Of a DNA stretch of 61,129 nucleotides, positions 37,404 to 60,988 are shown one piece after another. Origin of the DNA: Candidatus Omnitrophota bacterium (GTDB taxonomy: Bacteria; Omnitrophota; Gorgyraeia; 2-01-FULL-45-10). Position numbers and translations under genes: made by a program. The DNA lies in assembly GCA_903843285.1 (NCBI GenBank), contig CAIMPC010000026.1:1-61129 (forward strand), given 5' to 3'. The notes under the pieces were generated by a model that was not told the DNA's origin, ran no database searches, and worked only from the letters and a program-made list of their open reading frames with translations. Position 1 is the stretch's first letter; each line of letters starts with the position of its first letter.

Positions 37404-37425
37404 ATTTTTTCAGAAATCATAGAAA

Positions 37426-37457
37426 AAGCCCTCATCAGTACATTCTAACGAGGGCTT
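37426..37457 (-). terminator. Hairpin/terminator next to conserved element A
   Basis: AAGCCCTC/GAGGGCTT stem followed by TTTTTC on the minus strand. Confidence 0.5.
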
Positions 37458-37480
37458 CGATGCTATCTACCTATTTGTTT

Positions 37481-37555
37481 CCAGGTAAAATAAGTGGTGA
37501 GGGGCTTAACACTATCTTATAAACTCCTATCTTGTGCTTACAAAATGTCCGGTAA
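37481..37555. repeat. Conserved non-coding element, copy A (direct-repeat homolog of 60029-60105)
   Basis: CC(A/T)GGT..ATAAGTGGTGAGGGG..TTA..CTATC...CCTATCT...AA.ATGTCC is shared between the copies. Confidence 0.7.
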
Positions 37556-37648
37556 TTTTTGAATGGAAATCCTTTAACTTATTACTTCATATATAGATAC
37601 GAATGTCCGCCTTTCCTGACCCGGACTTAATCTTATATGGCTTTCACC

Positions 37649-37720
37649 TTATTTATCCTGCGAGAATATTACCACCGTGTATGGACCGATACTGGCTTTG
37701 CCAGAACAAGGTAGCCCATC
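37649..37720 (-). pseudogene. C-terminal remnant resembling a GH13 alpha-amylase/branching enzyme
   Basis: DGLPCSGKASIGPYTVVIFSQDK* resembles the terminal strand of alpha-amylase C-domains; there is no start and no catalytic domain. Confidence 0.45.
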
Positions 37721-38999
37721 AATTTTTTGGGCCATCATCCTCTGCCTCATATCCAGGTGGTGTCTTATGCCACTTATATCCGCTGATCGCGTCATCATAT
37801 CCGCGATTAAATAGTCTGCGCATCTCTTTTTTGTCAAACAGCTCTTTCAGCTGAGGTTTAAAATCGGCTGGAACATAAGCCAAATTAAAATCCAGACCCC
37901 TCCTCTTCGCATTAGCATAGAGCCTGTAGATATCCCCGCTATTCTCCGATGCCACTACCGTGTCAATAGCGCGTACGCTTATAGCTACCAAACTCTTTTT
38001 TACCTGTTGCCTAATAGGTGACATAGAACAGTTACTTAAGATATATATTTGCGGCCTGTATTTGGAGGGGTCTATACCTAAGATCTTAGCCGCACCTTCC
38101 ATATTTTTTGTTAAACGGTCAATGTAGAAGACGCCTCTCATAGTACCGGCGTCGACATGCATCTCATCATAAATATCACCGGACGCGGAAACGACTTTAA
38201 AATATACCGGAGGAAACGTCATTGGCAGCGAGTTTGAAGCCAGAATTATTTTACGGAACATCTTCACCGAATCAGGGCCGCCCTTACACGCAACAGCCCC
38301 CATGTCCCAAACAACAAATTCCTGCGCGTCAAGATTTACGGTACCTATGAATAGCCTGCGGCCGCGTTTATGCTCTTTGGCCACCCTGGCTATCAAATCC
38401 TCATCGACAAATGACGCGATCTTCTTGATCAGCGGCGCGGAACTCATGAAAGAGCCTTCAGATAATATATTGAAGACGTTGTTCCGCTTCATTATATCCT
38501 TAGTCGCTAGAGTCGTAAAAAAACTCTCGAGCCTGTCATCGTAATCTCTACCTAAGAACGCATATATGGCGATGAACGCTCCGGTGCTGACGCCTGTAAT
38601 TATTTTAAAGAGCGGCCGCGAGCCCTCCTTAGACCATCCTCTTAAGAACCCTGCCCCATAAGCGCCGTTAGCCCCGGCGCCTGAAACGGCCAGCACGGGA
38701 TAAGTCTTTATGCCGAACTCGTTAGTAGGATAATCGCCGCTACCCTCTTCTTTAAATGAATCTATCAGGCTCTTCTGCATAACGACCGGATCGGGGTCAT
38801 CAATATATGAGCGGATATCCGACATGCCGCTTATAGAAACTTTTTCACCAAAGTCTATCGGAGCTGCGCACCGTGTCCGCACAATAGTACAGCTCCGTAT
38901 CGATATTAAGCTGATCGGAAGAACAATCACTAGAATACCCGCCAGCCACTTTTTACTTATGGCCCTCACGTCCCCATACCTTATTATCCTATTCCCCAT
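37719..38999 (-). CDS. Patatin-like phospholipase (copy 2)
   Basis: SGAGANGAYGAG, GVSTG, HVDAG. Confidence 0.9.
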   Translation of the reverse strand: MGNRIIRYGDVRAISKKWLAGILVIVLPISLISIRSCTIVRTRCAAPIDFGEKVSISGMSDIRSYIDDPDPVVMQKSLIDSFKEEGSGDYPTNEFGIKTYPVLAVSGAGANGAYGAGFLRGWSKEGSRPLFKIITGVSTGAFIAIYAFLGRDYDDRLESFFTTLATKDIMKRNNVFNILSEGSFMSSAPLIKKIASFVDEDLIARVAKEHKRGRRLFIGTVNLDAQEFVVWDMGAVACKGGPDSVKMFRKIILASNSLPMTFPPVYFKVVSASGDIYDEMHVDAGTMRGVFYIDRLTKNMEGAAKILGIDPSKYRPQIYILSNCSMSPIRQQVKKSLVAISVRAIDTVVASENSGDIYRLYANAKRRGLDFNLAYVPADFKPQLKELFDKKEMRRLFNRGYDDAISGYKWHKTPPGYEAEDDGPKN

Positions 39000-39020
39000 A
39001 GCATTTTTATCATTTAGCGC

Positions 39021-39395: not shown

Positions 39396-39426
39396 CTCAT
39401 CCTCCTGGTTAGTTCGATGATATTTT

Positions 39427-40671: not shown

Positions 40672-40695
40672 ATATACCCCATCTCTATTTATTCT

Positions 40696-40812
40696 TTAAG
40701 TCGCCAGTAGGCGACCACGTAAGTCATAATTTGTATTGTAATTAGCAATGCGCAGGATTGACACGCAAATCAGAAGTGCTATCGCTATTAAGAATATCTT
40801 TTTCAATTTCAT
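40696..40812 (-). CDS. Possible 38-aa single-TM peptide
   Basis: MKLKKIFLIAIALLICVSILRIAN...; AAGGTG RBS; fills the gap within the operon. Confidence 0.35.
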   Translation of the reverse strand: MKLKKIFLIAIALLICVSILRIANYNTNYDLRGRLLAT

Positions 40813-40830
40813 TAGCTCAACACCTTTAAG

Positions 40831-40998
40831 CTATTTCTTCTTGCCAAGCAGAAAATAAAGAATCATTCCGATAACAGGCAAAATTAGTATCAGGATAATC
40901 CACAACAACTTATTACCTGCCTCCGCGGAGCTTTTCAGGATATCTACAATGGCAATAATATCCAGAATCAAAACTATAAGCGACACCATTCCTATCAT
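40831..40998 (-). CDS. PLD-nuclease N-terminal (PLDc_N) small membrane protein, copy 1
   Basis: MIGMVSLIVLILDIIAIVDILKS...KLLWIILILILPVIGMILYFLLGKKK; AGGAGG RBS. Confidence 0.85.
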   Translation of the reverse strand: MIGMVSLIVLILDIIAIVDILKSSAEAGNKLLWIILILILPVIGMILYFLLGKKK

Positions 40999-41043
40999 AA
41001 CTCCTCCTATTCAGCTTTGCGCCCTATCGCATAATCTCACCAC

Positions 41044-41424
41044 TTATACGGTGATATGTTTCTTTTGTGCGCTCGCTGGGTTGTCGACCTCTATCTTCTT
41101 TATCATATCCTTAATCGAATGCGTACCCTTATGAAAGCACCCACATACCGAACGAGAAAACGCCTTAGCATTCTTTGCGTGCGCGGAGTGAATATAAATC
41201 TTGGCAAACTCCCACCTGTTTATGAGCGTTGCTATTAACTCTGGCCCGCTTATCTCGGGCAAAAATAAATCCAAAATAATAACATCGGGAGTATATCCTG
41301 ACTTAGCTAATCCCAATACCTCGTAGCCTGCAAACGCTGTCTCTACCACATGGCCCGAACCCGTAAATCTGCATTTCATCAGTTTTACAAGATCGTGATT
41401 GTCGTCGATGATCAATACCTTCAT
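41044..41424 (-). CDS. Single-domain response regulator
   Basis: VLIIDDN, PDVIILDLFLPEISG. Confidence 0.85.
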   Translation of the reverse strand: MKVLIIDDNHDLVKLMKCRFTGSGHVVETAFAGYEVLGLAKSGYTPDVIILDLFLPEISGPELIATLINRWEFAKIYIHSAHAKNAKAFSRSVCGCFHKGTHSIKDMIKKIEVDNPASAQKKHITV

Positions 41425-41876
41425 ATCTTCTCTTCGTGGAGCGGCCCTATTTTATCAACTTCCGCATGGTATATTTTAGAGCTCCCCGGAGCATTAAGAC
41501 CCGCTGTCGCTTTTTTCAGGACATCTTCGATTTCCCATAAAAGGTCCTCAGGATCAAATGGTTTGCTTATTAAGTATTCTGCCCCGCTTTCTGTTCCGCG
41601 CCGTTGCACAGACTCTCCCAAGAGTGCCGTTACCATAATAACGGGTATATCTTTCGTTTTGACGTTTGCTTTAAGTAGCTTACATACTTCAAAACCGTTT
41701 TGCCCCGATAGTAAAACGTCTAACAGTATAACGCTCGGCTTCTCTTCAGCCGCCTTTTCGATACACTCATTCCCGCTGGATGCGGTGATAACCGTATACC
41801 CATTTTTTTCTAATCGAATCCTGATCATTTTCTGCACATCATACTCATCATCTACTACTAGAATCTTTGCTCCCAT
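41421..41876 (-). CDS. Single-domain response regulator
   Basis: ILVVDDE, ILLDVLL, IPVIMVTA, KPF. Confidence 0.9.
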   Translation of the reverse strand: MGAKILVVDDEYDVQKMIRIRLEKNGYTVITASSGNECIEKAAEEKPSVILLDVLLSGQNGFEVCKLLKANVKTKDIPVIMVTALLGESVQRRGTESGAEYLISKPFDPEDLLWEIEDVLKKATAGLNAPGSSKIYHAEVDKIGPLHEEKI

Positions 41877-42273
41877 GATCCATCTCCTTTTTCAAATTAA
41901 CGCTTTCCGATTGTTCCAGCATCTTCTTTACTGCGCTTATCAATTCTTTAGGCTGAAATGGCTTGGCAATGTATCCGTCAGCTCCGCATTCCTCAGCTCT
42001 TTGTGCCACAGAAGTGACAGTAGCAGAAATCAAAAGTATGGGGATATGCTTCAGGTCTTTATCCTCTTTTAAGATTCTGGCAACTTCATCACCGTTCATA
42101 TCCGGCATATGGAAATCGAGTATTATAAGATCCGGAATAATTTGGCGTGCCATCTCCAGCGCCTCCCGGCCATCTCTGGCACCGATCGTCTCATAACCGG
42201 TCTTATTTAATCTTAGCAATAAGATCTTTAATACATCCGGCTCATCATCTACTACCAGAATCTTCTTTGCCAC
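41848..42273 (-). CDS. Single-domain response regulator
   Basis: ILVVDDE, PDLIILDFHMPDMNG, KPF. Confidence 0.9.
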   Translation of the reverse strand: MAKKILVVDDEPDVLKILLLRLNKTGYETIGARDGREALEMARQIIPDLIILDFHMPDMNGDEVARILKEDKDLKHIPILLISATVTSVAQRAEECGADGYIAKPFQPKELISAVKKMLEQSESVNLKKEMDHGSKDSSSR

Positions 42274-42288
42274 GCTTTAGCCTCCACT

Positions 42289-44520
42289 CTATTTTATGGG
42301 CAGGGTAAAATGCAATATCGAACCTTTGCCAGGCTGCGACTCCGCCCATATATTTCCTTTATGCGCTTGAATTATCTCTTTAGATATGGCCAGCCCGAGA
42401 CCTGTACCGCCTCTCTTCTTTCCAAGTCCGCCGCCTAATTGTTCAAATGTCTGAAAGAGCTTGGGTATATCTGTGGCCTGTATCCCAAGGCCGGTATCCT
42501 CTACCATCACGTGCATCACATCAGTCTCATTTTTCGTAGTAATGGATATATTGCCTTTTTCTGTAAACTTTACGGCATTGCTCAATAAATTGGTTAAAAC
42601 CTGAATAATCTTGTCTTTATCAAACTTTGTCATGGGTATACTATCATCCGCGTTTACTGTGAAGCTCATGTCCTTCTCTTCCGCCAGAAAATTCATCTCC
42701 CTACTCGTTTCCAGCACTATCTTATTAATATCGTACTCTTTGATATCGAGCTCCATTTTTCCGGCTTCCATCTTCTGAAAATCTAAAACGTTATTAATAA
42801 GGCGCCCCAACCTGTCGATATTGCTCTTTGCGGTATCTAAAATATCTTTCTGCTCATCAGTAACGCTCCCCACCAACCCCTCCAAAACAAGATTGATGCT
42901 TTCCATAATAACTGTCAACGGACTCCTAAGCTCGTGGGATACCATAGAGGTGAACTTTGACTTTGATTCCATGGCTTCTTTAGTGGCTTCTTCGGCCTTC
43001 TTACGCTCGGTGATGTCTTCGATAGCCAGGAGAATGATACGTTCTTTCCCCAGTACTCTTTGGATTTGCCGGGCATCCAATAGCATTATGCGGCGGCCTA
43101 TAGCGGTGAAGTCGTGTTCAACCTCATAGTTATCAAAGGTTGTCTTCTGGGGAAGAATGGTTTCCAGAAGCTCCCGTAGCTTGGGAATGTTCCACTGTTT
43201 ATTGCCCAAATCATAGATAAGCTGTCCCACAGTCTCTTTAGTGTTTACTTTAAAGACTTCATAAAAAGAGCGGCTGGCGGTGACTACCCTTAGGTCCTGA
43301 TCCAAAACGATCAATGGCTCACGCACAGTGTTGATAATACTCTCCGCGTATTCACGGTCGGCATCTTCGGATATCTTAGTTATCTCCAGTTCCTTCCGGG
43401 TCTTTTCCAGTCCATCTTCTACCGCCTTGCGCTCCGTTACATCACGAAACACCAGCACGGCGCCGAACACCCGTCCCTCGCGATTAAGGATAGGCGCGCA
43501 ACTGTCGGCGATAGCGCACTCGCCGCCGCCGCGAGCAATCAGTATGGTGTGGTTAGCCAGGTTCTTCGCAGTTCCATGTGACAGGACTTCCCTTATTGGA
43601 CTGGCGGAGGGTTGACGGGTTTCCTCGTTAATTATGTTAAAGATCTCATCCGACGGTCGCCCGGAGGCTTTCGCCTGCATCCAGCCGGTAAGCTTTTCTG
43701 CAACAGCATTTAAAAATGTAACGCGACCTTCGGCATCGGTAGCCATTACCGCGTCGCCGATGGAACTGAGCGTAACTGCGAATTTTTCTTCGCTGATCTG
43801 CAGGGCAGTATTGATGAGCTGTAGCTCGTTATTCGTCTTCTCCTGAATATCGAGCAAATGTTTTGTTTCGAGATGGACTAAATTCTTAAGCCGCTGATCT
43901 GTTTCACGATATATCAAATACACGAAAGAAAGCGAAAAGAGCAATATCAGCAGACTGGCGATAACGATGAAAATAAATAATATACGTAGCTCTCCCTGAA
44001 ATTGTGCATCGTGTTGCGCCAGAGCGCCTTGTTCTACCAAGACGAAGCTCTTCATCTCGGAGCGAATCGAATCCATCAACCGCTTGTCCTGGCCACCGCG
44101 TACATTCGCCAGCGCAGTAGCAATGTCACCACTACTGTACAATTCGATGTTGCGCGCTAAATACGCCAATTTGGCATCTATCAATGGCCTCAGCGCGTCC
44201 AGATGCTTATTAGCAGCGCTACTTAAGGAAATTTGACGTAATTTTCCCAGATTACTGCTGATGCTATCGCGCACCGCCAAGTACGGCTTCAAAAAAGTCT
44301 CGTTATCAGTCAGCAAATAACCGCGCTGACCGGTCTCAGCATCTACCAATTCAGATAAAAGATCGTCCGCATTGTTTAGCACAATAAAGGTATTCTTTCG
44401 CAGTTCAGCGGATTTCTCCATGTGCATGAAAACTGATAACGATATCGTTATTACTGACATCGCCACGATCAATATCGCAACTCCAATAAGCGAAATAATA
44501 ATTTTATGACTTTTTTCCAT
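42289..44520 (-). CDS. CHASE3-PAS-PAS sensor histidine kinase
   Basis: DAETGQRGYLLT (CHASE3), two PAS domains, SHELRSPL, NLLSNAVKF, GTGLGL; RBS before ATG 44520. Confidence 0.92.
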   Translation of the reverse strand: MEKSHKIIISLIGVAILIVAMSVITISLSVFMHMEKSAELRKNTFIVLNNADDLLSELVDAETGQRGYLLTDNETFLKPYLAVRDSISSNLGKLRQISLSSAANKHLDALRPLIDAKLAYLARNIELYSSGDIATALANVRGGQDKRLMDSIRSEMKSFVLVEQGALAQHDAQFQGELRILFIFIVIASLLILLFSLSFVYLIYRETDQRLKNLVHLETKHLLDIQEKTNNELQLINTALQISEEKFAVTLSSIGDAVMATDAEGRVTFLNAVAEKLTGWMQAKASGRPSDEIFNIINEETRQPSASPIREVLSHGTAKNLANHTILIARGGGECAIADSCAPILNREGRVFGAVLVFRDVTERKAVEDGLEKTRKELEITKISEDADREYAESIINTVREPLIVLDQDLRVVTASRSFYEVFKVNTKETVGQLIYDLGNKQWNIPKLRELLETILPQKTTFDNYEVEHDFTAIGRRIMLLDARQIQRVLGKERIILLAIEDITERKKAEEATKEAMESKSKFTSMVSHELRSPLTVIMESINLVLEGLVGSVTDEQKDILDTAKSNIDRLGRLINNVLDFQKMEAGKMELDIKEYDINKIVLETSREMNFLAEEKDMSFTVNADDSIPMTKFDKDKIIQVLTNLLSNAVKFTEKGNISITTKNETDVMHVMVEDTGLGIQATDIPKLFQTFEQLGGGLGKKRGGTGLGLAISKEIIQAHKGNIWAESQPGKGSILHFTLPIK

Positions 44521-44686
44521 GTATCCTTTTAATTTCCGCGATCTGCCGCATGATCTCATCGCCTATCAGTTTATATGTCTCTTAATGCCGCTCTTCGTCT
44601 GCTTCAGCTTTCGGCCCTTTGTGCAAACACCTTCAGAAAAAATGGTGAGCATCCATAAGATAAATTTTTTGTTACCCGTTATTGCG

Positions 44687-44914
44687 TTACAGTTTATTTT
44701 CCCCTGTTTCGCTTGGTACTGCTTTCTGCTCGATAACAAGCGTTCCGGCCTGAGCGTCTATAACCTCGAGCTGTCCAATAGATTCCCGTAGGATAGGTGC
44801 CGGCATAGGATAAGCGACGATCTTACGGACCATCGTTTCTTCGTCTGTGCCTATAGAGCTGTCGATAAGCTCAATGGTAACAGGCTGGCCTGCTCTCAGA
44901 TCCTTGATTACCAC
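44687..44914 (-). pseudogene. Truncated paralog of the 56461-57492 repeat protein
   Basis: KDLRAGQPVTIEL...PMPAP...GQLEVIDAQAGTLVIEQK matches internal segments of 56461-57492; no signal peptide. Confidence 0.7.
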
Positions 44915-44968
44915 GTCACTTCCTCCTTTGTCAGTTATGCGCTATTAATTCATTATGTTTTCGACTTG

Positions 44969-45014
44969 ATCTTACTGAAAATTCGGAAATCGGTCAATTG
45001 TACATAGGTATAAT
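44969..45014 (-). promoter_or_regulatory. Palindromic box plus sigma70 promoter, copy 1
   Basis: GGTCAATTGTACATAGGTATAAT (44992-45014); minus strand TTGACC-N17-TAAGAT. Confidence 0.8.
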
Positions 45015-51269: not shown

Positions 51270-53953
51270 TTACCCGCTCCATATTTTAATTCGATAGAGG
51301 TCGTTCCGGGCATAATTCTCACGTTCGCAAATCCGGGCAGACAAATGTCTATTGATGGCTCTTTCGTAAGCCACTGTCCATGCCATTCGATATGGATGTT
51401 TTGCCCTTTTGGCTTTATGTGTATTTGAATATCTCCAAATTTTGTTGGCGCAGGCCCAAACGCAAGCGCTTGATCTTTCTCCAGCCAAATTCGTGGAATA
51501 CCGGAACATAAAATTAATCCATCGCATTCTTCGCGTACAAAACAATTTCTTATTATCAAGACCCACTCCGCTGCAGCCCATACATGCTGCCCATCCCCCA
51601 TACATCCGCCGCCTGTACGTGGATGTACCGACTCAGGCCATTGCCCAGTAGATGACGCCAGCTTCGCCACCGCTGTCATTAAACCAAGATATCTGGAATC
51701 ACCGGCGCGCAAAAGGTTCTGAGCTAAATGTAACGTAAGATAAGGATTAATCCCCGAATGGGTCATATCATGAAAAAATCCGCCATGGACCAAACAATTT
51801 TTCATTAAATACTCGGTCGTATCCAAAATTCTTGGGTCATTTTCTTCAAAAACGTGAAGCGGATATCCGGCAACTAGTGAACCGATCGCTCCCGTATCTA
51901 AGCGTCGATAAGGAGATGCCGGTATCGCAGGGCGTTTTAATCGACCTTCCACTTTCTTTATGCTTTGATCGATACTTTTCAGCAACGTATACGCTTCCTC
52001 TTCAAAATGGCTTGCCTCGTCATTATCCTTGTATGCGGCGCTCAAAAATGCAGCTGCCCTTAATCCCGCTACAGCCCAAAAGTCATCCCAATAATAAAAA
52101 TCATTCGGCCCCAAATGCTCAGCGCTAAATCCCGATGGTAATAAACCTGCGTGGGGGGAGAGCAAATCCCCGGATAAGCGCTTTTTGCATATCCACTTGC
52201 CAGCCTTGCTTATCGAGTCTTGCCATTCTTTTGGTGGCACATTTCCTGTCATCTCACAATATTGACGAATGATCCACAAGGCCTCGCCGTTGGAATCCCA
52301 TTCCCCTTCCTGGGACAAGAAATAACCTTGCAATGTTTGACGAGAACGAAAACAATCCAATGCCCTGTAAACGCGTTCCTTCAATCCTACGCACAAGAGA
52401 CCGTATAATATAAAAGCGGCATCTCTAAACCAAAATCTGCGATAAATATATGGCCCCGGATAAACTTCCTTTGGAGAATGTAAAATCATAGTATGGATAG
52501 CGGCATCATATAGAAATTTAAAATTTTTATCGGGTATCTGTAGCGCGCAAATGCCTTTAAGACTCGTCTTCCATGTCTCTTGCGCGGTTTCTTCGTATCC
52601 CGAATATGCTACTTTTTCTATTCTATCTTTCGTTAAAGGCACTGAAATTGTAATTTCCTGTGAGCTTCCAGGTTCTATTATATATAGCGCTGCGGAGCTG
52701 GCCATACCGACTTTGCATGAAATTTCTTTTTCATTTTCCATTGATGACAGACGACTATAAACATCGCCTCGAAGATAATCTGAAAATATATATTGGCCGG
52801 GAGGCCGATCAAAATATACGATATTTTTTTTGTTTACCTGCCAACCCAACGAATCGTCAAGGAGAGCAATGTTATTTATTAAACTCACGCCTTCGGGGTT
52901 ATATGGTCTAAGGGAAACAACTATCTGTGCTTTTACGGAGGCGGACCCTTTAATCTTAACCCGACAAATAGGTGCTACAGCCGAGCCAATAACTTGCGCT
53001 TCCAATCGCAGCTTTAATGTATCAAGGCTTGATTCTGTTACCACGCAGAGGTTATCATCCATAACCATCTTTTGTAATACGTTCGGACTGCGCGATGGGA
53101 TCAACGGTTCTCCCTCGATTGGAATGACCCATACGTCAATAGACCATCCATCATAAAAGGGAGTGAATAGACCCCGAGGATCCACGAGAGGGAATTCAGT
53201 GCCGTCAGGTATTCCTACGGCTGTCCAATTTCTATGGGTAAGATTAATTTGAGTCAATGAAAAGGACCTGGGAATAAATGCCTCGTCTTGAGGATCATAT
53301 TGGCGCTCCACCCAATAAGGCCAGATCCAATCAAGATTATGCTGGATAGCTAAACTATTCATCAGGCCACGAGCGTGTAAAACAACACCTGAGCGCAACA
53401 GTTCCGTAGGAGCTGTCACCTCCGAAGGCTGCGCAAACTTCTCTAACTGAGAAAGCACTTTGATAGGATCTATAAAACCCTGCCTTCGCGCGACATCACT
53501 AACTAAAGATCTCCAGGGGAACCATTTCCACCACATAAAATATACCTTCTCCGTTAAAAGGATCCTGAAAACCCACCATTTAAAGCAAATAAAGGCAAAC
53601 AGGCTGGTGCATATGGTGGCAATTATCAATGCCGGATAAATGGCGCCATGCCAGATGTTAAGAATGATTTGATTTATTACTACGTTAATCCCTAAAGCTA
53701 AGAAATTAATCAGTGCATACCGGCCAAATTCTGAATATGAAGACTGACTGCGCTTGAATGCCCAATACTTATAAAGCAGATATCCTACAATACCCGCGCA
53801 CGTAAAAGAGATCGCTTTGGCTATACTAAAAAGCATGAAATGAAATAGGATATAATAAACGCCGAAGTCTGTAGCATTGACTATAGTACCTGCAACAAAT
53901 ACTTTGATAATCTCTTTTCTGGAATTGCTGTCTATCTTTAATAAATTTTTCAT
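51266..53953 (-). CDS. GtrA-like flippase domain fused to a six-hairpin (GH15-like) glycosidase-like protein
   Basis: N-terminal 4-TM GtrA pattern (YKYWAF, FKWWVF); PGPYIYRRFWFRDA, GEWDSNG, SAEHLGPND, GQWPE, GDGQH. Confidence 0.75.
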   Translation of the reverse strand: MKNLLKIDSNSRKEIIKVFVAGTIVNATDFGVYYILFHFMLFSIAKAISFTCAGIVGYLLYKYWAFKRSQSSYSEFGRYALINFLALGINVVINQIILNIWHGAIYPALIIATICTSLFAFICFKWWVFRILLTEKVYFMWWKWFPWRSLVSDVARRQGFIDPIKVLSQLEKFAQPSEVTAPTELLRSGVVLHARGLMNSLAIQHNLDWIWPYWVERQYDPQDEAFIPRSFSLTQINLTHRNWTAVGIPDGTEFPLVDPRGLFTPFYDGWSIDVWVIPIEGEPLIPSRSPNVLQKMVMDDNLCVVTESSLDTLKLRLEAQVIGSAVAPICRVKIKGSASVKAQIVVSLRPYNPEGVSLINNIALLDDSLGWQVNKKNIVYFDRPPGQYIFSDYLRGDVYSRLSSMENEKEISCKVGMASSAALYIIEPGSSQEITISVPLTKDRIEKVAYSGYEETAQETWKTSLKGICALQIPDKNFKFLYDAAIHTMILHSPKEVYPGPYIYRRFWFRDAAFILYGLLCVGLKERVYRALDCFRSRQTLQGYFLSQEGEWDSNGEALWIIRQYCEMTGNVPPKEWQDSISKAGKWICKKRLSGDLLSPHAGLLPSGFSAEHLGPNDFYYWDDFWAVAGLRAAAFLSAAYKDNDEASHFEEEAYTLLKSIDQSIKKVEGRLKRPAIPASPYRRLDTGAIGSLVAGYPLHVFEENDPRILDTTEYLMKNCLVHGGFFHDMTHSGINPYLTLHLAQNLLRAGDSRYLGLMTAVAKLASSTGQWPESVHPRTGGGCMGDGQHVWAAAEWVLIIRNCFVREECDGLILCSGIPRIWLEKDQALAFGPAPTKFGDIQIHIKPKGQNIHIEWHGQWLTKEPSIDICLPGFANVRIMPGTTSIELKYGAGK

Positions 53954-53990
53954 TACAGTAACCTTATATTCTCTGAGCCTTTACATGCTG

Positions 53991-55271
53991 TTAAATGTTT
54001 ATCTTGCCTGACCTGATGATCTCTTCATATTTTTTTGCCGAATCCCGGATTTTCCGTTCTTGTGTTGTATAATCAACCTCTATCAACCCAAATCTTGGCG
54101 CAAAGCCCTCAGCCCATTCAAAATTATCCAAAAGCGACCAATAGAGATAGCCAAGCACATGGACACCCTCCTTCATAGCCAAAGCTACAGACTTAATATG
54201 CTCTGCTATAAACTCCGTACGCTCACGATCATCATCTGTGCAAATGCCGTTTTCTGAAATTAAAATCGGTAATTTGTATTTTGAAAATATCCTTATGAGC
54301 GTATACAATCCTTTCGGATAGATTTCCCACCCAAGAAAATTAATCTTACCTCGAGATTTATTTAAAGCAACTTTGATTTTATCGGAGAAAATGTCGAATG
54401 GCTTAAACCCGCTATTATGGACATGTTCCCGCATATAATAATTTAAACCTATAAAATCCAGAGTTTTCGCTCTAGAAAGTCTTATACTGAAAATCCATGA
54501 AACTTTTGCTTTACCCCGAATCAAAGCCTGTACAAACAGATGATTGATCAACCTATCCCGTATACTCGCAGAAATCCAATCCCACAACGATAGGCCCGAA
54601 AAAGGCGTAAATATAAGCACTTGTTGAGCCACTCCGATGGCCGGCCTTTTCCATTTTTTTTGGACATACACTTCTTTGATCTTGCCGTAAGCCAAGACAT
54701 GCGCATCGGCCAGATTTTTTACAACTTTAAACGCTTTGCTTACTGACTTCTCTCCCGGCGGCCATTGTCCAATTATATAGCTTTTATGCGCATAAACAGC
54801 CGGCTCATTTATTGTGATCCAATAATGAATATCAGCACCCAGCGCTTCTGTCGTCTTTTCTACATATTTAGCAAAAAGTTCCGGACTTTTGTCCGATAGC
54901 CATCCTCCCTGGCCCACCAACCATAAAGGTATAGTAAAATGATTTAATGTAACGATAGGCTCGATTCCCTTGGATTTCAGCGAAAGGATCATTTTGCGAT
55001 AATGCTCAATAGCTGAACTGTTAAATTGCCCGGGTGATGGCTCAATGCGGCTCCATTCGAGGGAAAGACGATGAGCTGTAAACCCGAAAGTTTGGGCAAG
55101 TTTAAAATCCTCTTCAAAGCGATTCCAGTGATCGCAAGCCTGACCGGAACGCGACTGAAGGTCTCGAGTTTGCTCCCACTGCCACCAATCGTTATTGGTA
55201 TTATTCCCCTCGACCTGATGAGATGAAGTGGATGCGCCCCACAAGAAATCTTTTGGGAATGTAAATTCCAT
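53991..55271 (-). CDS. Glycoside hydrolase family 1 (beta-glucosidase-like)
   Basis: FLWGASTSSHQVEG, SLEWSRIEP, TINEP, ISENG, WSLLDNFEW. Confidence 0.95.
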   Translation of the reverse strand: MEFTFPKDFLWGASTSSHQVEGNNTNNDWWQWEQTRDLQSRSGQACDHWNRFEEDFKLAQTFGFTAHRLSLEWSRIEPSPGQFNSSAIEHYRKMILSLKSKGIEPIVTLNHFTIPLWLVGQGGWLSDKSPELFAKYVEKTTEALGADIHYWITINEPAVYAHKSYIIGQWPPGEKSVSKAFKVVKNLADAHVLAYGKIKEVYVQKKWKRPAIGVAQQVLIFTPFSGLSLWDWISASIRDRLINHLFVQALIRGKAKVSWIFSIRLSRAKTLDFIGLNYYMREHVHNSGFKPFDIFSDKIKVALNKSRGKINFLGWEIYPKGLYTLIRIFSKYKLPILISENGICTDDDRERTEFIAEHIKSVALAMKEGVHVLGYLYWSLLDNFEWAEGFAPRFGLIEVDYTTQERKIRDSAKKYEEIIRSGKINI

Positions 55272-55289
55272 CTTTAACTTCCTTGCCCA

Positions 55290-55421
55290 TTATTTACCGA
55301 TATTTTCAATATGTTTCCCCGCGCTTTCTATGTCTTTCCCCGCTCCCCTGGCCGCGTTGCATCCTACGGTCGAGATCATCAAAAATAAAGCTGCGAGCAC
55401 TACTAACGTAAGCTTTTTCAT
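55290..55421 (-). CDS. Entericidin A/B-family lipoprotein, copy 1
   Basis: MKKLTLVVLAALFLMISTVGC-NAARGAGKDIESAGKHIENIGK. Confidence 0.8.
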   Translation of the reverse strand: MKKLTLVVLAALFLMISTVGCNAARGAGKDIESAGKHIENIGK

Positions 55422-55587
55422 ATTTTTTCTTTACGATCAGAAAATAAAGCACCATGCCGATAACTGGCAAAATGAGTATCAGGACGATCCACAACGCCTT
55501 ATTGGCCGTATCCGCAGAACTTTTCAGAATATCAACGATTGCGCTAATATCCAGAACCAATACTAAAAACGTCGCTATTCCTATCAT
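55306..55587 (-). CDS. PLDc_N small membrane protein, copy 2 (C-terminally extended)
   Basis: LDISAIVDILKSS...KALWIVLILILPVIGMVLYFL; no stop after KKK, so it runs across the entericidin ORF in another frame. Confidence 0.75.
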   Translation of the reverse strand: MIGIATFLVLVLDISAIVDILKSSADTANKALWIVLILILPVIGMVLYFLIVKKKYEKAYVSSARSFIFDDLDRRMQRGQGSGERHRKRGETY

Positions 55588-55619
55588 ACTGCCTCCCCAA
55601 AAAATACTTTAGGATAATC

Positions 55620-55808
55620 TTATCTAATACGCACGTCGTTAATGTTACCCAATATACCGAATGCCTGCAATAACCAAATGGCGACAACAATGATCACAAC
55701 GACATTCAGGATAGACTTGATTTTACTATCCATAGGTATATAAGTATTAATCAACCATAGGGCCACGCCAACAACAACTAACACTACGACAACTGAAATT
55801 AATGACAT
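55620..55808 (-). CDS. Thivi_2564-like small membrane protein
   Basis: MSLISVVVVLVVVGVALWLINTYIPMDSKIKSILNVVV...WLLQAFG; AGGAGG RBS. Confidence 0.8.
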   Translation of the reverse strand: MSLISVVVVLVVVGVALWLINTYIPMDSKIKSILNVVVIIVVAIWLLQAFGILGNINDVRIR

Positions 55809-55843
55809 TTGTCTGCCTCCTAATGTTTTATTCCATGCCCGCA

Positions 55844-55981
55844 TCAATATTTCAAATCTTTCAAGAAATGATGTTTTACCTCACTACTACCATTGTCCGA
55901 CATAGCTTTCTGCTCATCGATTTCGACCCATTCCTTAAGCTGTGCGGCTAATTTGTCGATAAAAGTTTCTTTTTTCTTCAC
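55844..55981 (-). pseudogene. Short, probably truncated coiled-coil stress-protein-like ORF
   Basis: GGGAGG RBS, GTG start, KETFIDKLAAQLKEWVEIDE; stops after 45 aa. Confidence 0.45.
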
Positions 55982-56003
55982 TCCGACCTCCCTTCTCTGC
56001 TCC

Positions 56004-56177
56004 TTAAAACAATTTCCTCTTTTCGATCAAAAAATAAAGGATCATGCCTATAACGGGCAGGACCACAATCAAAATGATCCATAACAGTTTCTTCACTGTA
56101 TCTGCTGAACTTTTTAGGATATCAAGGATGGCAATGATATCCAGAATCAGAACTATAAGCCCAACTATTCCTATCAT
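56004..56177 (-). CDS. PLDc_N small membrane protein, copy 3
   Basis: MIGIVGLIVLILDIIAILDILKSSADTVKKLLWIILIVVLPVIGMILYFLIEKRKLF; AGGAGG RBS. Confidence 0.85.
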   Translation of the reverse strand: MIGIVGLIVLILDIIAILDILKSSADTVKKLLWIILIVVLPVIGMILYFLIEKRKLF

Positions 56178-56302
56178 GGTTCCTCCTGATTTTAAGCGTA
56201 ATAATTAAGCCATTATAGCTCGCTTGCGAGCTCATAGAAGAAACTCAAGCCTCTCCTATAAGCGGAGATAATCTAATAGCTATGTCGCTCCTTTTTTATA
56301 GT

Positions 56303-56434
56303 TTATTTGCCGATACCTTCTATGTGCTTACCCGTATCCGATATATCTCTTCCAACGCCCCTGGCTGCATTGCACCCCGATATCGACATAACCAAAAATA
56401 AAGCTACGAACATTAATAAAGAAATTTTTTTCAT
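56303..56434 (-). CDS. Entericidin A/B-family lipoprotein, copy 2
   Basis: MKKISLLMFVALFLVMSISGC-NAARGVGRDISDTGKHIEGIGK; AGGAG RBS. Confidence 0.85.
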   Translation of the reverse strand: MKKISLLMFVALFLVMSISGCNAARGVGRDISDTGKHIEGIGK

Positions 56435-56460
56435 GCTATCTCCTATGTTATGGCTACCAG

Positions 56461-57492
56461 TTACTGTTTTACGGTTGTATTTATTATGGTCGTTATAGCT
56501 GTGCTTGTTGTTTTCGAGACCGCAGAAAGTAATATAATGGATCGCGCATGTCGCTTTCCATCTCTCACTGTAAATTCAATTTTAACTACATCGCCCGGCT
56601 TTAGATCTAATTGCAGGGGATCCAAAAGCGGAGCTTTCATAACAACAACATCCTTTGGTTCAAATACGAAAAAGAACAGATTATTTTCCCCTGCTTCGCC
56701 GGGTAACGGTTTCTGCTCGATCATGAGCGTTCCAGCTTCTGCATCTATTGCCTCAAGCTCACCAGTTGCTTCCTGTAGGGCAGGTGCAGGCATAGGTTCG
56801 ACAATGATCTTTCGCGTACTTGTTGTTGTTGTGGTGGTGGTTGTGCTCGTAGTTTCCGGAGCAGCTTGAAGCAGCATAATGGAGCGTGCATGCCGCTGTC
56901 CTTCGCTCACCACGAATCCAATCTTCACTAGATCGCCCGGCCTTAGATCCAACTGCACAGGATCCGTGCTTGGTGTCCTCATAATAATTATGCTCTTTGG
57001 ATCAAAGACAAAATAGATGAAATTTCTTCTATCTTCTCTGGATAATGATTTCTGCGAAATAATAATCGTTCCGACCTGAGCATCTATAACCTCAAGCTCA
57101 CCGGTGACTTCTTGCAGGACAGGCTCCGGCATGGGATCAACGGTGATCTTCCGAGCCATCGTATCTACGATGACGCCGCTAGGACTATCGACCAATTCAA
57201 TAGTGACATGTTGACCCGGTTTTAAATCCTTAACAACGAGAAACTTCTTGTCCATTGGATCGGTCACAAGCGTCTGTTCCAAATTAAGCTTATACTCTGA
57301 TATATCTCTGGTATCTTGACCTGGATCGCTATCAAGCTGTAGCATACCGAGCTTAACATTAATCCATGAAATTATGCCGGAAACGTGGCGCATCTTTGTC
57401 TTGGCAGTCACTTCGGCTGCAGATACATGTGCTAACTCACCAAACATAAAGATCACCAAAATTCCAAATAAAACTGCCTTAAGCCTCCACAT
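56461..57492 (-). CDS. Exported protein with three OB-fold-like beta repeats and Thr-rich linkers
   Basis: Signal peptide; DLKPGQHV / DLRPGDLV / DLKPGDVV modules; modules 2 and 3 are clear duplicates. Confidence 0.75.
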   Translation of the reverse strand: MWRLKAVLFGILVIFMFGELAHVSAAEVTAKTKMRHVSGIISWINVKLGMLQLDSDPGQDTRDISEYKLNLEQTLVTDPMDKKFLVVKDLKPGQHVTIELVDSPSGVIVDTMARKITVDPMPEPVLQEVTGELEVIDAQVGTIIISQKSLSREDRRNFIYFVFDPKSIIIMRTPSTDPVQLDLRPGDLVKIGFVVSEGQRHARSIMLLQAAPETTSTTTTTTTTSTRKIIVEPMPAPALQEATGELEAIDAEAGTLMIEQKPLPGEAGENNLFFFVFEPKDVVVMKAPLLDPLQLDLKPGDVVKIEFTVRDGKRHARSIILLSAVSKTTSTAITTIINTTVKQ

Positions 57493-57543
57493 ACGTCCTC
57501 CTTCGGTTATTACTACACTTTCCCTTATCAGCCTTATGCTTGC

Positions 57544-57589
57544 ATATTAGTAAAAAATAGGGAAACGGTCAATTGTACCTGGGTATAAT
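57544..57589 (-). promoter_or_regulatory. Palindromic box plus sigma70 promoter, copy 2
   Basis: GGTCAATTGTACCTGGGTATAAT (57567-57589); minus strand TTGACC-N17-TAATAT. Confidence 0.8.
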
Positions 57590-57639
57590 CGGTCTTTGGT
57601 GACATTACGCCTCCTATCGGTTATAAACATCACTTCCAC

Positions 57640-58011
57640 CTATTTTTGAAAAGCAAGACTAATCAAATCCACCAACGCCTGGTCATTAAACGGTTTTTGC
57701 AGAAACCCTACGACCCCTGCTTTTAAAGCCTTCTCGCTAAGTCCTCCATTCTTATCCGCCGACATAATAATAACCGGACGGTTAGATCCTGACTTAAGAA
57801 GGCGCTGATGCGTTTGCCATCCGTCTAACCCCGGCATATGGATATCCAGTAGCAAACAACCTGATGCGCTATTGGGTACACTGTGAAAAAAATCCTCTGC
57901 GGAAGTAAAAGTAGCCACTGTAAATCCGTACGTACCTAACAGAGCTCTAAGCGCACGGCATACTGATTCATCATCATCTACAATGAAAATGTGGTTCTTC
58001 TTGGATAAGAT
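57640..58011 (-). CDS. Single-domain FixJ-like response regulator without a canonical start codon
   Basis: The frame extends upstream of GTG 57918 through HIFIVDDDESVCRAL to ATC 58011, just after SD GGGGAGGGAG; CLLLDIHMPGLDG, KPF. Confidence 0.75.
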   Translation of the reverse strand: MLSKKNHIFIVDDDESVCRALRALLGTYGFTVATFTSAEDFFHSVPNSASGCLLLDIHMPGLDGWQTHQRLLKSGSNRPVIIMSADKNGGLSEKALKAGVVGFLQKPFNDQALVDLISLAFQK

Positions 58012-58041
58012 TTCTGCTCCCTCCCCTAATGTTTGCGAAGG

Positions 58042-58191
58042 TTAAAGTAACTTCCGTCCACTAATGAGACGCAAAATAATAACAATAACTGCAATAACAA
58101 GCAGTATGTGGATAAACCCTCCCATGGTGTACGACGAAACCAACCCTAATAACCAAAGCACAATCAAAATAACTGCAACTGTGTACAGCAT
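58042..58191 (-). CDS. lmo0937-family small membrane protein
   Basis: MLYTVAVILIVLWLLGLVSSYTMGGFIHILLVIAVIVIILRLISGRKLL; AGGAGG RBS. Confidence 0.88.
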   Translation of the reverse strand: MLYTVAVILIVLWLLGLVSSYTMGGFIHILLVIAVIVIILRLISGRKLL

Positions 58192-58249
58192 ATCGAACCT
58201 CCTGACTGATAACGATTCACAATTCCTATAGAAGAATTTAGTATATGGT

Positions 58250-58295
58250 ATTGTATGGAAATATCAAAAAATGGTCAATTGTACTTGGGTATAAT
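58250..58295 (-). promoter_or_regulatory. Palindromic box plus sigma70 promoter, copy 3
   Basis: GGTCAATTGTACTTGGGTATAAT (58273-58295); minus strand TTGACC-N17-TACAAT. Confidence 0.8.
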
Positions 58296-58358
58296 AGTGA
58301 GATTTTACGATATGTCTTAGAAAATATTGCCTTTTAAACAATCAGGAAGAAATTAGTG

Positions 58359-58979
58359 CTAGGTGGTAGTAATACCGGCTTTTTCGGCGAAGTGGATAAG
58401 CTCTGTTACGGTTTTAGCATGCATCTTCTGCATGACCCGGCCACGATGAACCTTTATGGTTTGGAGGGAAGTCCCACGCTTGAAAGCAATCTGCTTACTC
58501 AGCATACCCTTAGCCACGAAACAAAATACCTCAAGCTCTCGGGGAGATAAGGTCTTAATGCGGCGCTGTATTCTGGCTATTTCGGCTTCTTCTTTATTTT
58601 GAGTTTTGTTTTTTTCAATTGCTCGGTTAATGGCATCCAGCAGTTTCTTTTCAGTAAATGGTTTGGGAAGAAAGTCTATTGCTCCAGCTTTCATAGCTCT
58701 CACAGTCATAGGAATATCGCCATGCCCCGTAATAAAGATGATTGGGATAGTGAGCTTCCGCGCTGCCATCGCGTCTTGAAGCGCAAGTCCATCAATATCC
58801 GGCAGGCGAATGTCAAGTACCAGACATGATGAACTCTTAGGATGCTTACACGCTAAAAAATCTGAAGCACGCATAAATGTCTGAGACTTAAATCCGTGGG
58901 ATTTTAGCAATAAAGACAAGGCCCTGCATACAGAAATATCATCATCAACTATATATACGGTATCCCTGCGCCTGTTCAC
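58359..58979 (-). CDS. FixJ/NodW-family response regulator (REC + LuxR HTH)
   Basis: VYIVDDD, CLVLDIRLP, TGHGDIPMTVRAMKAGA, LSPRE, TIKVHRGRVMQKM. Confidence 0.93.
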   Translation of the reverse strand: MNRRRDTVYIVDDDISVCRALSLLLKSHGFKSQTFMRASDFLACKHPKSSSCLVLDIRLPDIDGLALQDAMAARKLTIPIIFITGHGDIPMTVRAMKAGAIDFLPKPFTEKKLLDAINRAIEKNKTQNKEEAEIARIQRRIKTLSPRELEVFCFVAKGMLSKQIAFKRGTSLQTIKVHRGRVMQKMHAKTVTELIHFAEKAGITTT

Positions 58980-59918
58980 TTAGAGATCCCTTTTATTAAT
59001 GGGAATAGTGAAGTAGAAGGTTGCGCCACGCTTAGAATTATTCTCTATCTCCAATCGGCCTCCGTGCGCCTCAATAATGGAACGGCTAATGGATAGCCCC
59101 ATACCCAAACCGTCCGGCTTACTGGTAAAAAAGTGCGTGAAGAGCTTGGGTATACTTTGCGCAGGAATGCCGCATCCGGAATCACTTACGTTCACAATAA
59201 CATTATCTTTATCTTTACGCGAGGCGCTAACCAGGATTTCGCGTGGACCCGAAATGCTATTCATGGCATCAAAACTGTTGCTTATAAGATTCAGGAGAAC
59301 CTGTTGCAGTTGTATGCGGTCACCGCGGACAAGCGGAAGATCTCTATCTATTTTCAGTTTTAATAAAACGCTTCTTATGATAGCATCCGTTAAAATAAGT
59401 ACAATGGTATCGCTAATAAGAACGCCCACATCTATTGGTTTCATTTCGGGCGCATTCTTCTTCAGTAGTGCACGTAACCGCTGGATGACCGCAGTCGCTC
59501 GCTGATCATCATCGATGATGTACCGTAGAATTTCCCGTATCTTAGGCTCCCTATCTGCGAGCATGCGCTCGGCAGCTTGAGAATACGAAAGAATGGCCGT
59601 AAGGGGTTGACTAATTTCATGAGCAAGCGAAGATACGAACTCCGCAAGCTTTCCAACTCTGGTGACATGCAAAAGCTCCTCGCGTTGCTTAATGATCTCC
59701 AGATCCTTCTTCCGTATTGAGATAGCGTCTATGTGGATCTGCTTTTCTGACTTTATCTGCTTCTTTATCCCACTCCTCAGCTGTCTATTCTTTATCTTGA
59801 GCTTATCGGCTTGCCGCTGAACTAATCCCTCCAGGCGCACACGCTCTCCGCTTCGGGTTCTTTTTCCTTTAAGAATCCGCGGTTTACGTTTTAGTTTGGA
59901 CTGTTTTATATTTGTCAT
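58980..59918 (-). CDS. FixL-type histidine kinase lacking a sensor domain
   Basis: LAHEISQPL, DRIQLQQVLLNL, DSGCG, GMGLSISRSIIEAHGG; the N-terminus is only a basic coiled coil. Confidence 0.85.
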   Translation of the reverse strand: MTNIKQSKLKRKPRILKGKRTRSGERVRLEGLVQRQADKLKIKNRQLRSGIKKQIKSEKQIHIDAISIRKKDLEIIKQREELLHVTRVGKLAEFVSSLAHEISQPLTAILSYSQAAERMLADREPKIREILRYIIDDDQRATAVIQRLRALLKKNAPEMKPIDVGVLISDTIVLILTDAIIRSVLLKLKIDRDLPLVRGDRIQLQQVLLNLISNSFDAMNSISGPREILVSASRKDKDNVIVNVSDSGCGIPAQSIPKLFTHFFTSKPDGLGMGLSISRSIIEAHGGRLEIENNSKRGATFYFTIPINKRDL

Positions 59919-59991
59919 TATTATTTATAGGGCCTATTAAGCGAAAAAGAAAACCACTCGAAAAACTGAGGGGTTCCTTTAATAATCTAAA

Positions 59992-60038
59992 CTAACCAGG
60001 TTAGATTCAGAATACCTGACTTTTCTAACCTGGTTAGA
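59992..60038. repeat. Pair of inverted, self-palindromic 14-bp sites
   Basis: CTAACCAGGTTAGA (59992-60005) and TCTAACCTGGTTAG (60024-60037). Confidence 0.7.
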
Positions 60039-60105
60039 TATAAGTGGTGAGGGGGGTTAGCCTATCGGCTTCAGGCCTATCTGATACTCGAATATGTCCA
60101 GAAAA
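60029..60105. repeat. Conserved non-coding element, copy B
   Basis: Colinear match to 37481-37555, including ATAAGTGGTGAGGGG, CTATC, CCTATCT and ATGTCC. Confidence 0.7.
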
Positions 60106-60229
60106 AAGCCCCCTTTTGTCCACATTTTCGCTGGACACAAAGCTATAATTCATTGTAATACAAGAGATTATAAAATGTCAATGAATGTCTACGGACATTT
60201 CTATTTTGTCTAAAATGTCCGGCCTTAAA

Positions 60230-60988
60230 CTAGCCTGCAAAAATGCCTGCGCCGACGCCATCTTCGTCATCATCATCCCGCGCATCTTCTTCCGGTGTCG
60301 TGCGCCCAAAGTCTGGATGATTAAGGCCTCTGCCGTGACGGTCCTTTGCGTCATCTGTCAAAGGCAAAAAGCCGACCTGGTTTATCTCCGCCTCTCTCAA
60401 GACCATTTCCAGGGCATCGGGTCCATCGTCATGATCGCCTCTGGGAAAATATTTGAGCTGGTCAAGCAGCATGGTATGTTTTCGAGAAAACAACACAGTG
60501 CCTGTTGTAATATACGTTTCCATCCCAAAGATTCTCAACTCCTTGTTCCTGGTATTGCGGACTTCCTTGAAAGGCACGAGAATATTCTCTTTGTAGGCAC
60601 GTTCGCGCACGGTCTTCAGCAAAAGCTCCGGAAATAAGTTTGCCTCGATAACGAATTTTTCCATGTGCGGATAAATTTTGCAGTAATTGATCATGGCCTG
60701 AACCAGGTCATCCTGCGACCTTTGAGCGATATCGGCTTCTAGAACGTAAATCTTCCCCTTGTGCTTGGCTATAACAATAATGGCAGAGTAATCCGAGCGG
60801 CCATTTTTTAAGCCAACACTGGGGTCAACGCCGGCAGAAATAACATAATCGCCGTTAAAAGATTCGAGAAGTTTTGCCACTGTAGGGAATTCATCATACC
60901 AATAATAGAACTTCTCCGGATCATAGCGGCACTCTTTGGCGTTAGTTGGGTCATTCTGTTTCTCGGAGTCAAAACTATATGAACCCTC
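60230..60988 (-). pseudogene. Phage terminase large subunit, C-terminal nuclease part (5' end interrupted)
   Basis: EGSYSFDSEKQNDP, AGVDPS...SDYSAI, IEANLF, QLKYFPRGDHDDGPDAL. In-frame TGA at 60998-61000 upstream; no ATPase domain in the window. Confidence 0.85.

Follow-up and report, generated by a model that had tools for sequence, protein, structure and literature searches.

Two non-coding repeats on an Omnitrophota contig as probable relics of a decayed array of terminase-carrying, capsid-less tRNA islands

The locus and its two non-coding repeats

The window analysed here, a stretch of 61,129 nucleotides (nt), is the entire contig C26 (CAIMPC010000026.1) of a Candidatus Omnitrophota genome (G000; 1.96 Mb in 73 contigs, 45% G+C), and contains two non-coding repeats, A and B, on either side of a 22.5-kb block of lipid-related and signalling genes. 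All 19 large open reading frames (ORFs) scanned between positions 34426 and 60880 lie on the minus strand, and the repeats are therefore read on that strand. An earlier reading of the letters alone (the sequence-only reading) had described A (37481-37555) and B (60029-60105) as colinear direct repeats, and alignment bears this out. The two share a 15-nt core (ATAAGTGGTGAGGGG on the plus strand, CCCCTCACCACTTAT on the minus strand) that is found in the window only at 37490-37504 and 60040-60054, two matches against 0.06 expected, a number reached in none of 100 shuffles. A and B are also the sole matches to the core in the whole genome when up to one mismatch is allowed, and the sole matches in an nhmmer search of this genome. 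Outside the core, 61 of 109 aligned positions are identical. Seven nucleotides within the core, CTCACCA (37495-37501 in A, 60045-60051 in B), are the same as the last 7 nt of tRNA-Lys(UUU), the gene for which is found on contig C63 of this genome and ends in GGCTCACCA. No tRNA gene was found in the window by ARAGORN.

On the 5' side of each core are two AGATAGG-type repeats at fixed spacing, with TGTCC/GGACA motifs farther upstream; the enrichment of these motifs noticed by the sequence-only reading is real, with 2 in 156 nt at A and 5 in 175 nt at B compared to 1.3 per kb in the window. In copy B this non-coding sequence, of a type that we call the right-end arm or P-arm, extends over 60055-60229 (minus strand) and was matched at 60038-60162 with 62 bits by R1, a sequence model built from seven arm copies; it contains the five TGTCC/GGACA motifs, AGATAGG-N8-CGATAGG repeats, and a promoter-like TTGACA-18-TACAAT located by promoter scan at 60181-60152 (minus strand). 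In copy A the arm (37505-37640, minus strand; delimited by alignments and an R1 match of 73 bits at 37487-37588) contains a TGTCC...GGAC palindrome at approximately 37604-37627, a GGACA motif, and AAGATAGG-N8-AGATAGT repeats. Core A is followed on its 3' side by about 95 nt of a second, opposite (P'-type) arm (37395-37489, minus strand) that includes a terminator hairpin (37426-37457, minus strand) with a 14-bp stem and a UUUUU run. Over 46 nt this piece shares 82.6% identity with the sequence flanking the tRNA-Lys(UUU) gene of this genome on C63, and it is colinear with the flanks of tRNA-Lys and of the first junction in a related locus, G020:C56. Of the two hairpins previously suggested, the one at A is thus retained; the one placed at 59952-59975 beside B folds weakly, and a much stronger 14-bp hairpin is found 3' of core B at 59992-60037 (minus strand), built on a CTAACCTGGTTAG motif; the genome has this motif after two tRNA-Leu genes as well.

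Repeat B directly follows a terminase ORF, as had been noted, though this ORF (60230-60997, minus strand; 255 amino acids (aa) from stop to stop; Pfam Terminase_6C) is a remnant of the large terminase subunit gene TerL that encodes the nuclease domain only. It is 77% identical in aa sequence to the C-terminal 253 aa of a longer gene in G012, a genome of another genus, where a Walker B motif lies upstream of the shared region. A tblastn search with a 565-aa relative found residues 313-543 alone in the whole genome, and the remnant corresponds to the C-terminal 40% of TerL. The gene is interrupted by a 141-nt repeat at the end of the contig (60989-61129), in which a plus-strand ORF starts at approximately 61096. 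An identical sequence forms the end of contig C27, on which a broken serine recombinase gene and DUF2924 are found; the contig depth of the repeat is 208 compared to about 44 (run X2), approximately five-fold, and several distinct loose contig ends occur at 60988/60989 among public contigs. A sequence of about 140 nt at C63:1-140, 1.4 kb beyond a nikR-like gene, is present with 97-100% identity at no fewer than 16 other contig ends, and probably marks the end of an insertion sequence whose many copies interrupt the assembly.

Repeat A is flanked by an autotransporter gene (PF03797; 34426-37359, minus strand), which lies downstream of A's terminator and has a promoter-like sequence of its own (TTTGCA-18-TATACT at 37404-37375, minus strand, by promoter scan), and by an intact patatin gene (37719-38999). 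Repeat B is flanked by the terminase fragment and by a gene pair encoding a kinase and a LuxR-type regulator. The sequence-only reading had regarded both ends of the block as broken, with a remnant like glycoside hydrolase family GH13 beside A and a sensor-less kinase beside B. No GH13 domain was found by Pfam in the 19 scanned ORFs, and the kinase is intact (312 aa, compared to 314 aa for its orthologue in the congener G004, with 75% nucleotide identity), so that the notion of broken cargo ends is not supported.

The arm in related genomes

The repeats were compared with 40 genomes of the same family and with 151 genomes sampled across the phylum. Matches to R1 were found in 25 of the 40 family genomes and, with stricter filters, in 8 of the 151 phylum-wide genomes. 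A strict pattern, GATAG-N7-CCCCTCACCAC, is present in five of the 40 family genomes and gave no control matches, and arm homologues in four other genomes score 48-88 bits against R1. Most R1 matches span the upstream half of the arm alone, which consists of a hairpin-like TGTCC...GGACA palindrome and a conserved stretch ending in GGACA-N5-GGACA. This is usually followed by a TTGAnn-N17-TATAAT promoter and then by approximately 40-140 nt, after which homology between genomes stops abruptly, in every subtype, at a short string whose last letters are CCA (ACCCCA, CTCACCA, GGGCTACCA or GGGACGCCA). In G048, GGGCTACCA together with its terminator is the end of a tRNA-Glu(CUC) gene, and in seven of the eight copies of the CCCCTCACCA subtype the core is followed by a hairpin and a U-run. 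Two features of these sequences are newly recognized here: arms with at least five different tRNA-end cores have a common upstream module with GGACA repeats, and most arms carry a predicted outward promoter. Arms in the same orientation and 1.7-22.5 kb apart are found in tandem in five genomes.

Several candidate readings of the motifs were set aside. Inspection of the repeats by eye for sigma-54, sigma-28, extracytoplasmic function (ECF) or Pho-box promoters gave spacings that do not fit. A genome-wide GGACA regulon was rejected, with one match to GGACA-N5-GGACA compared to three for the reversed control, and four matches to TGTCC-N12-16-GGACA compared to 12. One-mismatch matches in G004, G008 and G032, a pattern match in G052, and a third copy of CCCCTCACCAC in this genome (C1:7290-7300) all lack the flanking motifs and were attributed to chance.

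The genes located directly beyond the arms show some recurrence. A small GIY-YIG nuclease gene is directly 3' of the arm in four genomes (L048 in G002:C30, L034 in G011:C23, L055 in G109:C68, and L053 in G064:C24); in L009/L048 and L055 a stretch immediately 5' of this gene is complementary to the core and pairs with it. A Fic gene directly follows the arm in three genomes (L045, L046 and L050). In L059 (G010:C26, 5133-5305), an arm whose core is of the tRNA-His type leads into greA with no terminator in between, and the outward promoter of this arm may now drive that housekeeping gene.

Linkage to tRNA genes, recombinases and terminases

A matching tRNA gene was found upstream of the arm, on the same strand, in all five loci whose contigs reach far enough: tRNA-Lys, 3.5 kb from the arm in G018:C95 and 20.2 and 21.9 kb from the arms in G020:C56; tRNA-Glu(CUC), 51.4 kb from the arm in G050:C2; tRNA-His, 25.3 kb from the arm in G008:C6; and tRNA-Arg(UCU), 6.1 and 17.3 kb from the arms in G018:C36. 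This count leaves out the window (the contig of which ends 1 kb upstream of B), G010:C26, G005:C40 and G020:C22, in all of which the contig extends just 0.1-2.8 kb past the outermost arm or terminase on the upstream side. A search of three of these loci (G020:C56, G050:C2 and G008:C6) showed in each a large serine recombinase gene, paired with DUF2924, at 240-307 nt from the tRNA gene; with the like arrangement on two other contigs of this genome, C1 (tRNA-His) and C73 (tRNA-Glu), the range is 240-314 nt. The pair on C1 (885-3352) abuts tRNA-His and is apparently intact, and that on C73 (84865-87660) abuts tRNA-Glu(CUC) in two alignment pieces and is possibly frameshifted; a broken copy of the recombinase is found on C27, and none of these three recombinases is accompanied by TerL in the assembly.

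Between the tRNA gene and the arm, the same three related loci (G020:C56, G050:C2 and G008:C6) contain a unit that encodes, in order, a cro-like helix-turn-helix (HTH) protein, a ParB-N/DNA methylase, an HTH protein of approximately 225 aa in the place of the small terminase subunit (TerS), and TerL (phrog_38) last, with DUF2924 and the large serine recombinase (531-546 aa) nearby on the opposite strand. The trio of ParB-methylase, TerS-like and TerL genes is intact in at least five related loci. A search with the G012 TerL protein gave 15 matches in 11 of the 40 family genomes, and seven of these (in G000, G012, G050 twice, G008, G005 and G020:C56) have an arm on the same strand at a downstream distance of 8 nt to 13.2 kb. 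At an eighth match, in G020:C22, the arm is found on the other side, about 4.3 kb upstream of the ParB-methylase gene with which the unit begins. Several of the remaining seven matches are on very short contigs. The sequence-only reading had expected a portal gene in the position occupied by B; in these capsid-less islands the gene preceding the arm is normally TerL itself, and in G012 and G050 the arm follows it directly.

One comparison with an empty site was obtained. A stretch of 11.7 kb ending with the arm in G050 is unmatched in five congeners, and the flank that follows the arm core in G050 matches the sequence directly 3' of tRNA-Glu in the congeners G048 and G051; in G053, which is 61% complete, the corresponding pieces are on different contigs. 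Within the G050 array, the TerL gene of the first unit is followed immediately by an arm with the core CTACCA; a second conserved stretch comes next, and then the recombinase gene of the following unit. This second stretch is the P'-type arm, which follows tRNA-Lys in this genome and G020, tRNA-Arg in G018:C36, and tRNA-Glu in G050 and this genome, and which also follows the cores of A, of the first junction in G020, and of the first junction in G018:C36.

Genes of virion formation were sought in the island-carrying genomes. HK97-type capsid and portal families (PF05065 and PF04860) have no match in any of five such genomes, the search having covered this capsid fold, and no head or tail family is present among the 25 listed of the 74 PHROG families matched by 47 island ORFs. 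Nor was any match to the tyrosine integrase family PF00589 found on G008:C6, G050:C2, G020:C56, G005:C40 or the contig of the window. Portal and capsid genes were considered as the genes following the arm in G050, which proved to encode a saccharopine dehydrogenase and an epimerase.

A different arrangement was seen at two other tRNA genes, where the last 20 nt or so of the tRNA is duplicated approximately 130-170 nt downstream (tRNA-Tyr at G000:C62:3460-3720 and tRNA-Leu at G048:C16, L082, 2190-2330). The duplicates enclose similar G+C-rich inserts (...gcc..cggg..ggctgg.caggagg.gcc...), and similar sequence is present after the second junction of G020:C56 (L046, approximately 2560-2690). These inserts may be a small element of a second kind that targets tRNA ends.

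Interpretation of the repeats

From the architecture of arm and core, the identity of the cores with tRNA ends, the linkage of both to recombinase and terminase genes in related loci, and the comparison with an empty site, A and B are best interpreted, with a probability of roughly 70%, as relics of site-specific recombination junctions in a decayed tandem array of terminase-carrying, capsid-less islands at tRNA genes. Each junction would consist of a right-end arm of approximately 150-200 nt and a short crossover core that copies the very last 3' nucleotides of a tRNA gene (CTCACCA of tRNA-Lys(UUU) in this case). A complete island would comprise, in order, the tRNA gene, a P'-type arm, the large serine recombinase with DUF2924, the cro-like HTH protein, the ParB-N/DNA methylase, the TerS-like protein, TerL, optional cargo, and the right arm with its core. 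Each new island would enter the regenerated tRNA gene and push older ones outward, and successive insertions would thus build an array of arms and cores in one orientation, separated by cargo; an intact version of this layout is found in G020:C56, G050:C2 and G018:C36. The window, on its minus strand, would represent a worn version: the TerL remnant, B, 22.5 kb of cargo, A with 95 nt of P'-type arm, and the autotransporter gene. Both of its repeats have the right-end arm directly before the core (73 bits for A and 62 bits for B), and it lacks the recombinase at the proximal junction, which G020:C56, G050:C2 and G008:C6 possess, as well as the full ParB-methylase/TerS/TerL operon. The sequence-only reading had proposed the two ends of a terminase-bearing element that accumulates cargo in tandem, with the conserved site serving in packaging, in recombination or as a small-RNA locus. 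Such a family of elements is upheld, and of the three roles recombination has comparative support from the tRNA-end cores and recombinase linkage in relatives, packaging and small-RNA roles being candidates; the idea that A and B are two different ends is not upheld, as both have the same type of arm and would belong to successive units. We infer that the junctions were made by the serine recombinase, with crossover within the core of 6-13 nt, and we attribute to the arm some function in cis, as suggested by its GGACA repeats and, in most copies, by an outward sigma-70-like promoter that would give a short terminated RNA across the core.

Several observations weigh against this interpretation. 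The system in the window is dead, its TerL gene having been cut by a repeat and its recombinase, TerS, ParB-methylase and tRNA genes being gone: the absence of an integrase from the window, as stated by the sequence-only reading, holds for any recombinase, and the window also lacks TerS-like and ParB-methylase genes and the N-terminal part of TerL. TerS and ParB-methylase genes were found nowhere in this genome, and serine recombinase genes were found only on C1, C27, C33 and C73. The sole tRNA-Lys(UUU) gene of the genome is on another contig, C63, where its P'-type flank is followed by the nikR-like gene (so identified from its translation) and by no recombinase. Core and tRNA agree over a short length, 7 nt in both A and B. 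The core of B has no P'-type arm or recombinase after it, which implies that the 22.5-kb block is not a canonical unit, and at the borders of the corresponding block in G004 there is neither an arm (best R1 E-value 0.45) nor a tRNA gene. Some arms lead directly into a greA, der or asmA-like gene. Furthermore, large serine recombinases are known to need sites of only about 40-50 bp, and a conserved arm of 150-200 nt is therefore not explained by recombination alone.

Candidate roles for the arm include operators for the HTH proteins of the island, an outward promoter, an RNA across the core, and a packaging site; the greA, der and asmA-like cases suggest that the outward promoter would restore transcription of host genes behind the tRNA. 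A more elaborate proposal, which we consider doubtful as a whole, is that the arm, more than a scar, is a working cis element of a capsid-less satellite in which the GGACA/TGTCC cluster, adjoining both TerL and the crossover core, would be a packaging (pac) start site read by the island's TerS, TerL and ParB-methylase, the RNA from the outward promoter would time recombination or packaging as it crosses the core, and packaging from one arm would run into the next unit, so that blocks consisting of cargo only, of which the 22.5-kb lipid and signalling block would be one, could pass from cell to cell with no genes of their own for it.

Less probable is that A and B are paralogous host genes for small RNAs, or regulated promoter-leader cassettes, unrelated to mobility. 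A regulator would bind the GGACA repeats, and a short RNA with a C-rich CCCCUCACCAC seed would be released at an intrinsic terminator. This would account for the hairpin and U-run after seven of eight CCCCTCACCA cores, for the TTGAnn-N17-TATAAT promoter located approximately 40-50 nt upstream of the core in most other copies, and for the arms that run straight into greA, der or asmA-like genes. A complement of 13 nt of the seed, CTCACCACTTATA, is found within the block on the mRNA strand (41036-41048, plus strand), overlapping the stop codon of a receiver gene (41044-41424); this inverted copy of the core, reported by the sequence-only reading, does exist, but because about one such match per genome is expected by chance on our own estimate, it may be a chance occurrence. 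The site falls at a local difference in gene order from G004. What small host RNAs leave unexplained is that the last conserved nucleotides are those of a tRNA 3' end, the corresponding tRNA gene being located upstream, that TerL and serine recombinase genes are linked to it, and that arm and island are absent together from congeners. Moreover, GGACA repeats are not enriched elsewhere in the genome, and no family of Rfam 15 matches the window or 11 related loci at the gathering score (chance-level matches only at E-values up to 5). The predicted 5' domain of the commonest arm subtype shows compensatory change in none of its nine pairs. The sequencing runs listed as containing this DNA include none of RNA. 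An arm transcript may nonetheless exist, which would make the small-RNA proposal partly compatible with recombination junctions of tRNA islands.

More improbable still is that A and B are the attachment sites attL and attR of a single 22.5-kb mobile element, namely the block itself. Direct repeats with an identical 15-nt core do bracket the block, and the block is accessory and has moved, being at a different locus in G004 and nearly absent from G001. Positions 39031-59928 of the window align colinearly with G004:C5:63500-81724 (74-85% identity). There the block has two additional genes and is located between gltD-like and Glu_synthase-like genes (G004:C5:60854-81744) that in this genome are adjacent, 42 nt apart (G000:C16:30734-30776). 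A search of G001 (99% complete) with positions 30000-61129 gave no more than three matches, all of them weak and short (up to 228 nt). However, the same arm is on the same side of the core in both A and B, which are therefore not hybrid sites; no recombinase or other mobility gene was found by Pfam in the block; and the borders of the block in G004 lack arms and tRNA genes, with no repeats or mobility genes seen there, so that the arms are not the block's own ends in that genome. Contigs from two studies, among four DNA runs compared over 41200-61129, cross B unchanged, and the joints and loose ends listed include none at the core. Chance similarity of A and B, or a generic terminator or repetitive extragenic palindromic (REP)-type repeat, is favoured only by the frequency of B's hairpin motif after tRNA genes, and is refuted by the 100 shuffles without a second core, by the homologues of 48-88 bits in four other genomes, and by the strict pattern without control matches.

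Comparison with known systems

The islands resemble several known systems in part. Tycheposons of Prochlorococcus are reported to be islands seeded at tRNA genes, 474 of 501 with tyrosine recombinases; they carry terS and major capsid protein (MCP) labels, and some resemble phage-inducible chromosomal islands (PICI) with packaging genes (bioRxiv 10.1101/2020.12.28.424599). As in tycheposons, successive integrations appear to be divided by partial tRNA copies, with older elements pushed outward and remnants and cargo accumulating; the Omnitrophota islands differ in having a large serine recombinase, TerL, and an arm of about 200 nt with only 6-13 nt of the tRNA. The hallmark tyrosine recombinase of tycheposons is absent from the island contigs (PF00589 is unmatched on them), and the serine recombinase is found in its place.

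PICI are reported to have a core of integrase, AlpA/Stl-type regulation, primase-replicase and terS, to which capsid-forming PICI (cfPICI) add capsid, head-tail connector and terL genes (PMC10085698). Like these, the Omnitrophota islands are small and integrative, carry a regulator together with packaging genes, and lack most virion genes, and terL is present as in cfPICI; unlike in PICI and cfPICI, their packaging set consists of the ParB-methylase, the TerS-like protein and TerL, with no capsid or portal Pfam match. By gene content they do not fit either group, with no match to a tyrosine integrase or to capsid and portal families (a primase-replicase was not specifically searched for), and no helper phage is known for them.

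The attachment sites of prophages with large serine recombinases, such as phiC31, Bxb1 and A118, are approximately 40-50 bp and are not known to have long arms. The Omnitrophota islands resemble these prophages in that the recombinase gene adjoins the attachment site and a short core is common to both partners, whereas the conserved arm of 150-200 nt with its repeats resembles the accessory-site arms of lambda-type attP more than phiC31-type sites. No description of this island family was noticed in the literature searched, at the level of listings and the opening lines of abstracts.

The Omnitrophota are abundant and uncultivated, and little is known of their gene exchange. The arm with its tRNA-end core provides a sequence marker, present in 25 of 40 family genomes, for terminase-carrying islands without capsid genes, with which one can map the borders of islands, their tandem arrays and decayed cargo in fragmentary genomes from metagenomes. 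By this marker a block of approximately 21 kb for lipid metabolism and signalling, accessory by its distribution, is placed inside such an array. If the arm were a packaging or control site, it would offer a handle on the movement of capsid-less satellites and of the cargo of their neighbours.

Genes and repeats of the cargo block

The cargo between the cores (37719-59918, minus strand; assigned by Pfam) encodes a HisKA kinase with its LuxR-type regulator, a cluster for lipids and glycolipids, a CHASE3-PAS kinase, three receiver proteins and two patatins. The block of approximately 21 kb also holds AMP-binding, acyl carrier protein (ACP) and acyltransferase genes, and genes encoding a GT4-hydrolase, a GtrA-like protein and a GH1 protein. 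Two families of internal repeats were noted. A segment of approximately 190 nt is present in triplicate (40816-41008, 55405-55597 and 55995-56187; 75% identity) and encodes small membrane proteins of PLDc_N type; its copies adjoin the two patatin phospholipases and the lipid-building cluster, a neighbourhood that may be a membrane-lipid remodelling island. A 47-nt intergenic sequence is also triply present (44969-45015, 57544-57590 and 58250-58296; 72-81% identity), with GGTCAATTGTAC..GGTATAAT common to its copies, and could be a promoter or operator shared by genes inside the block.

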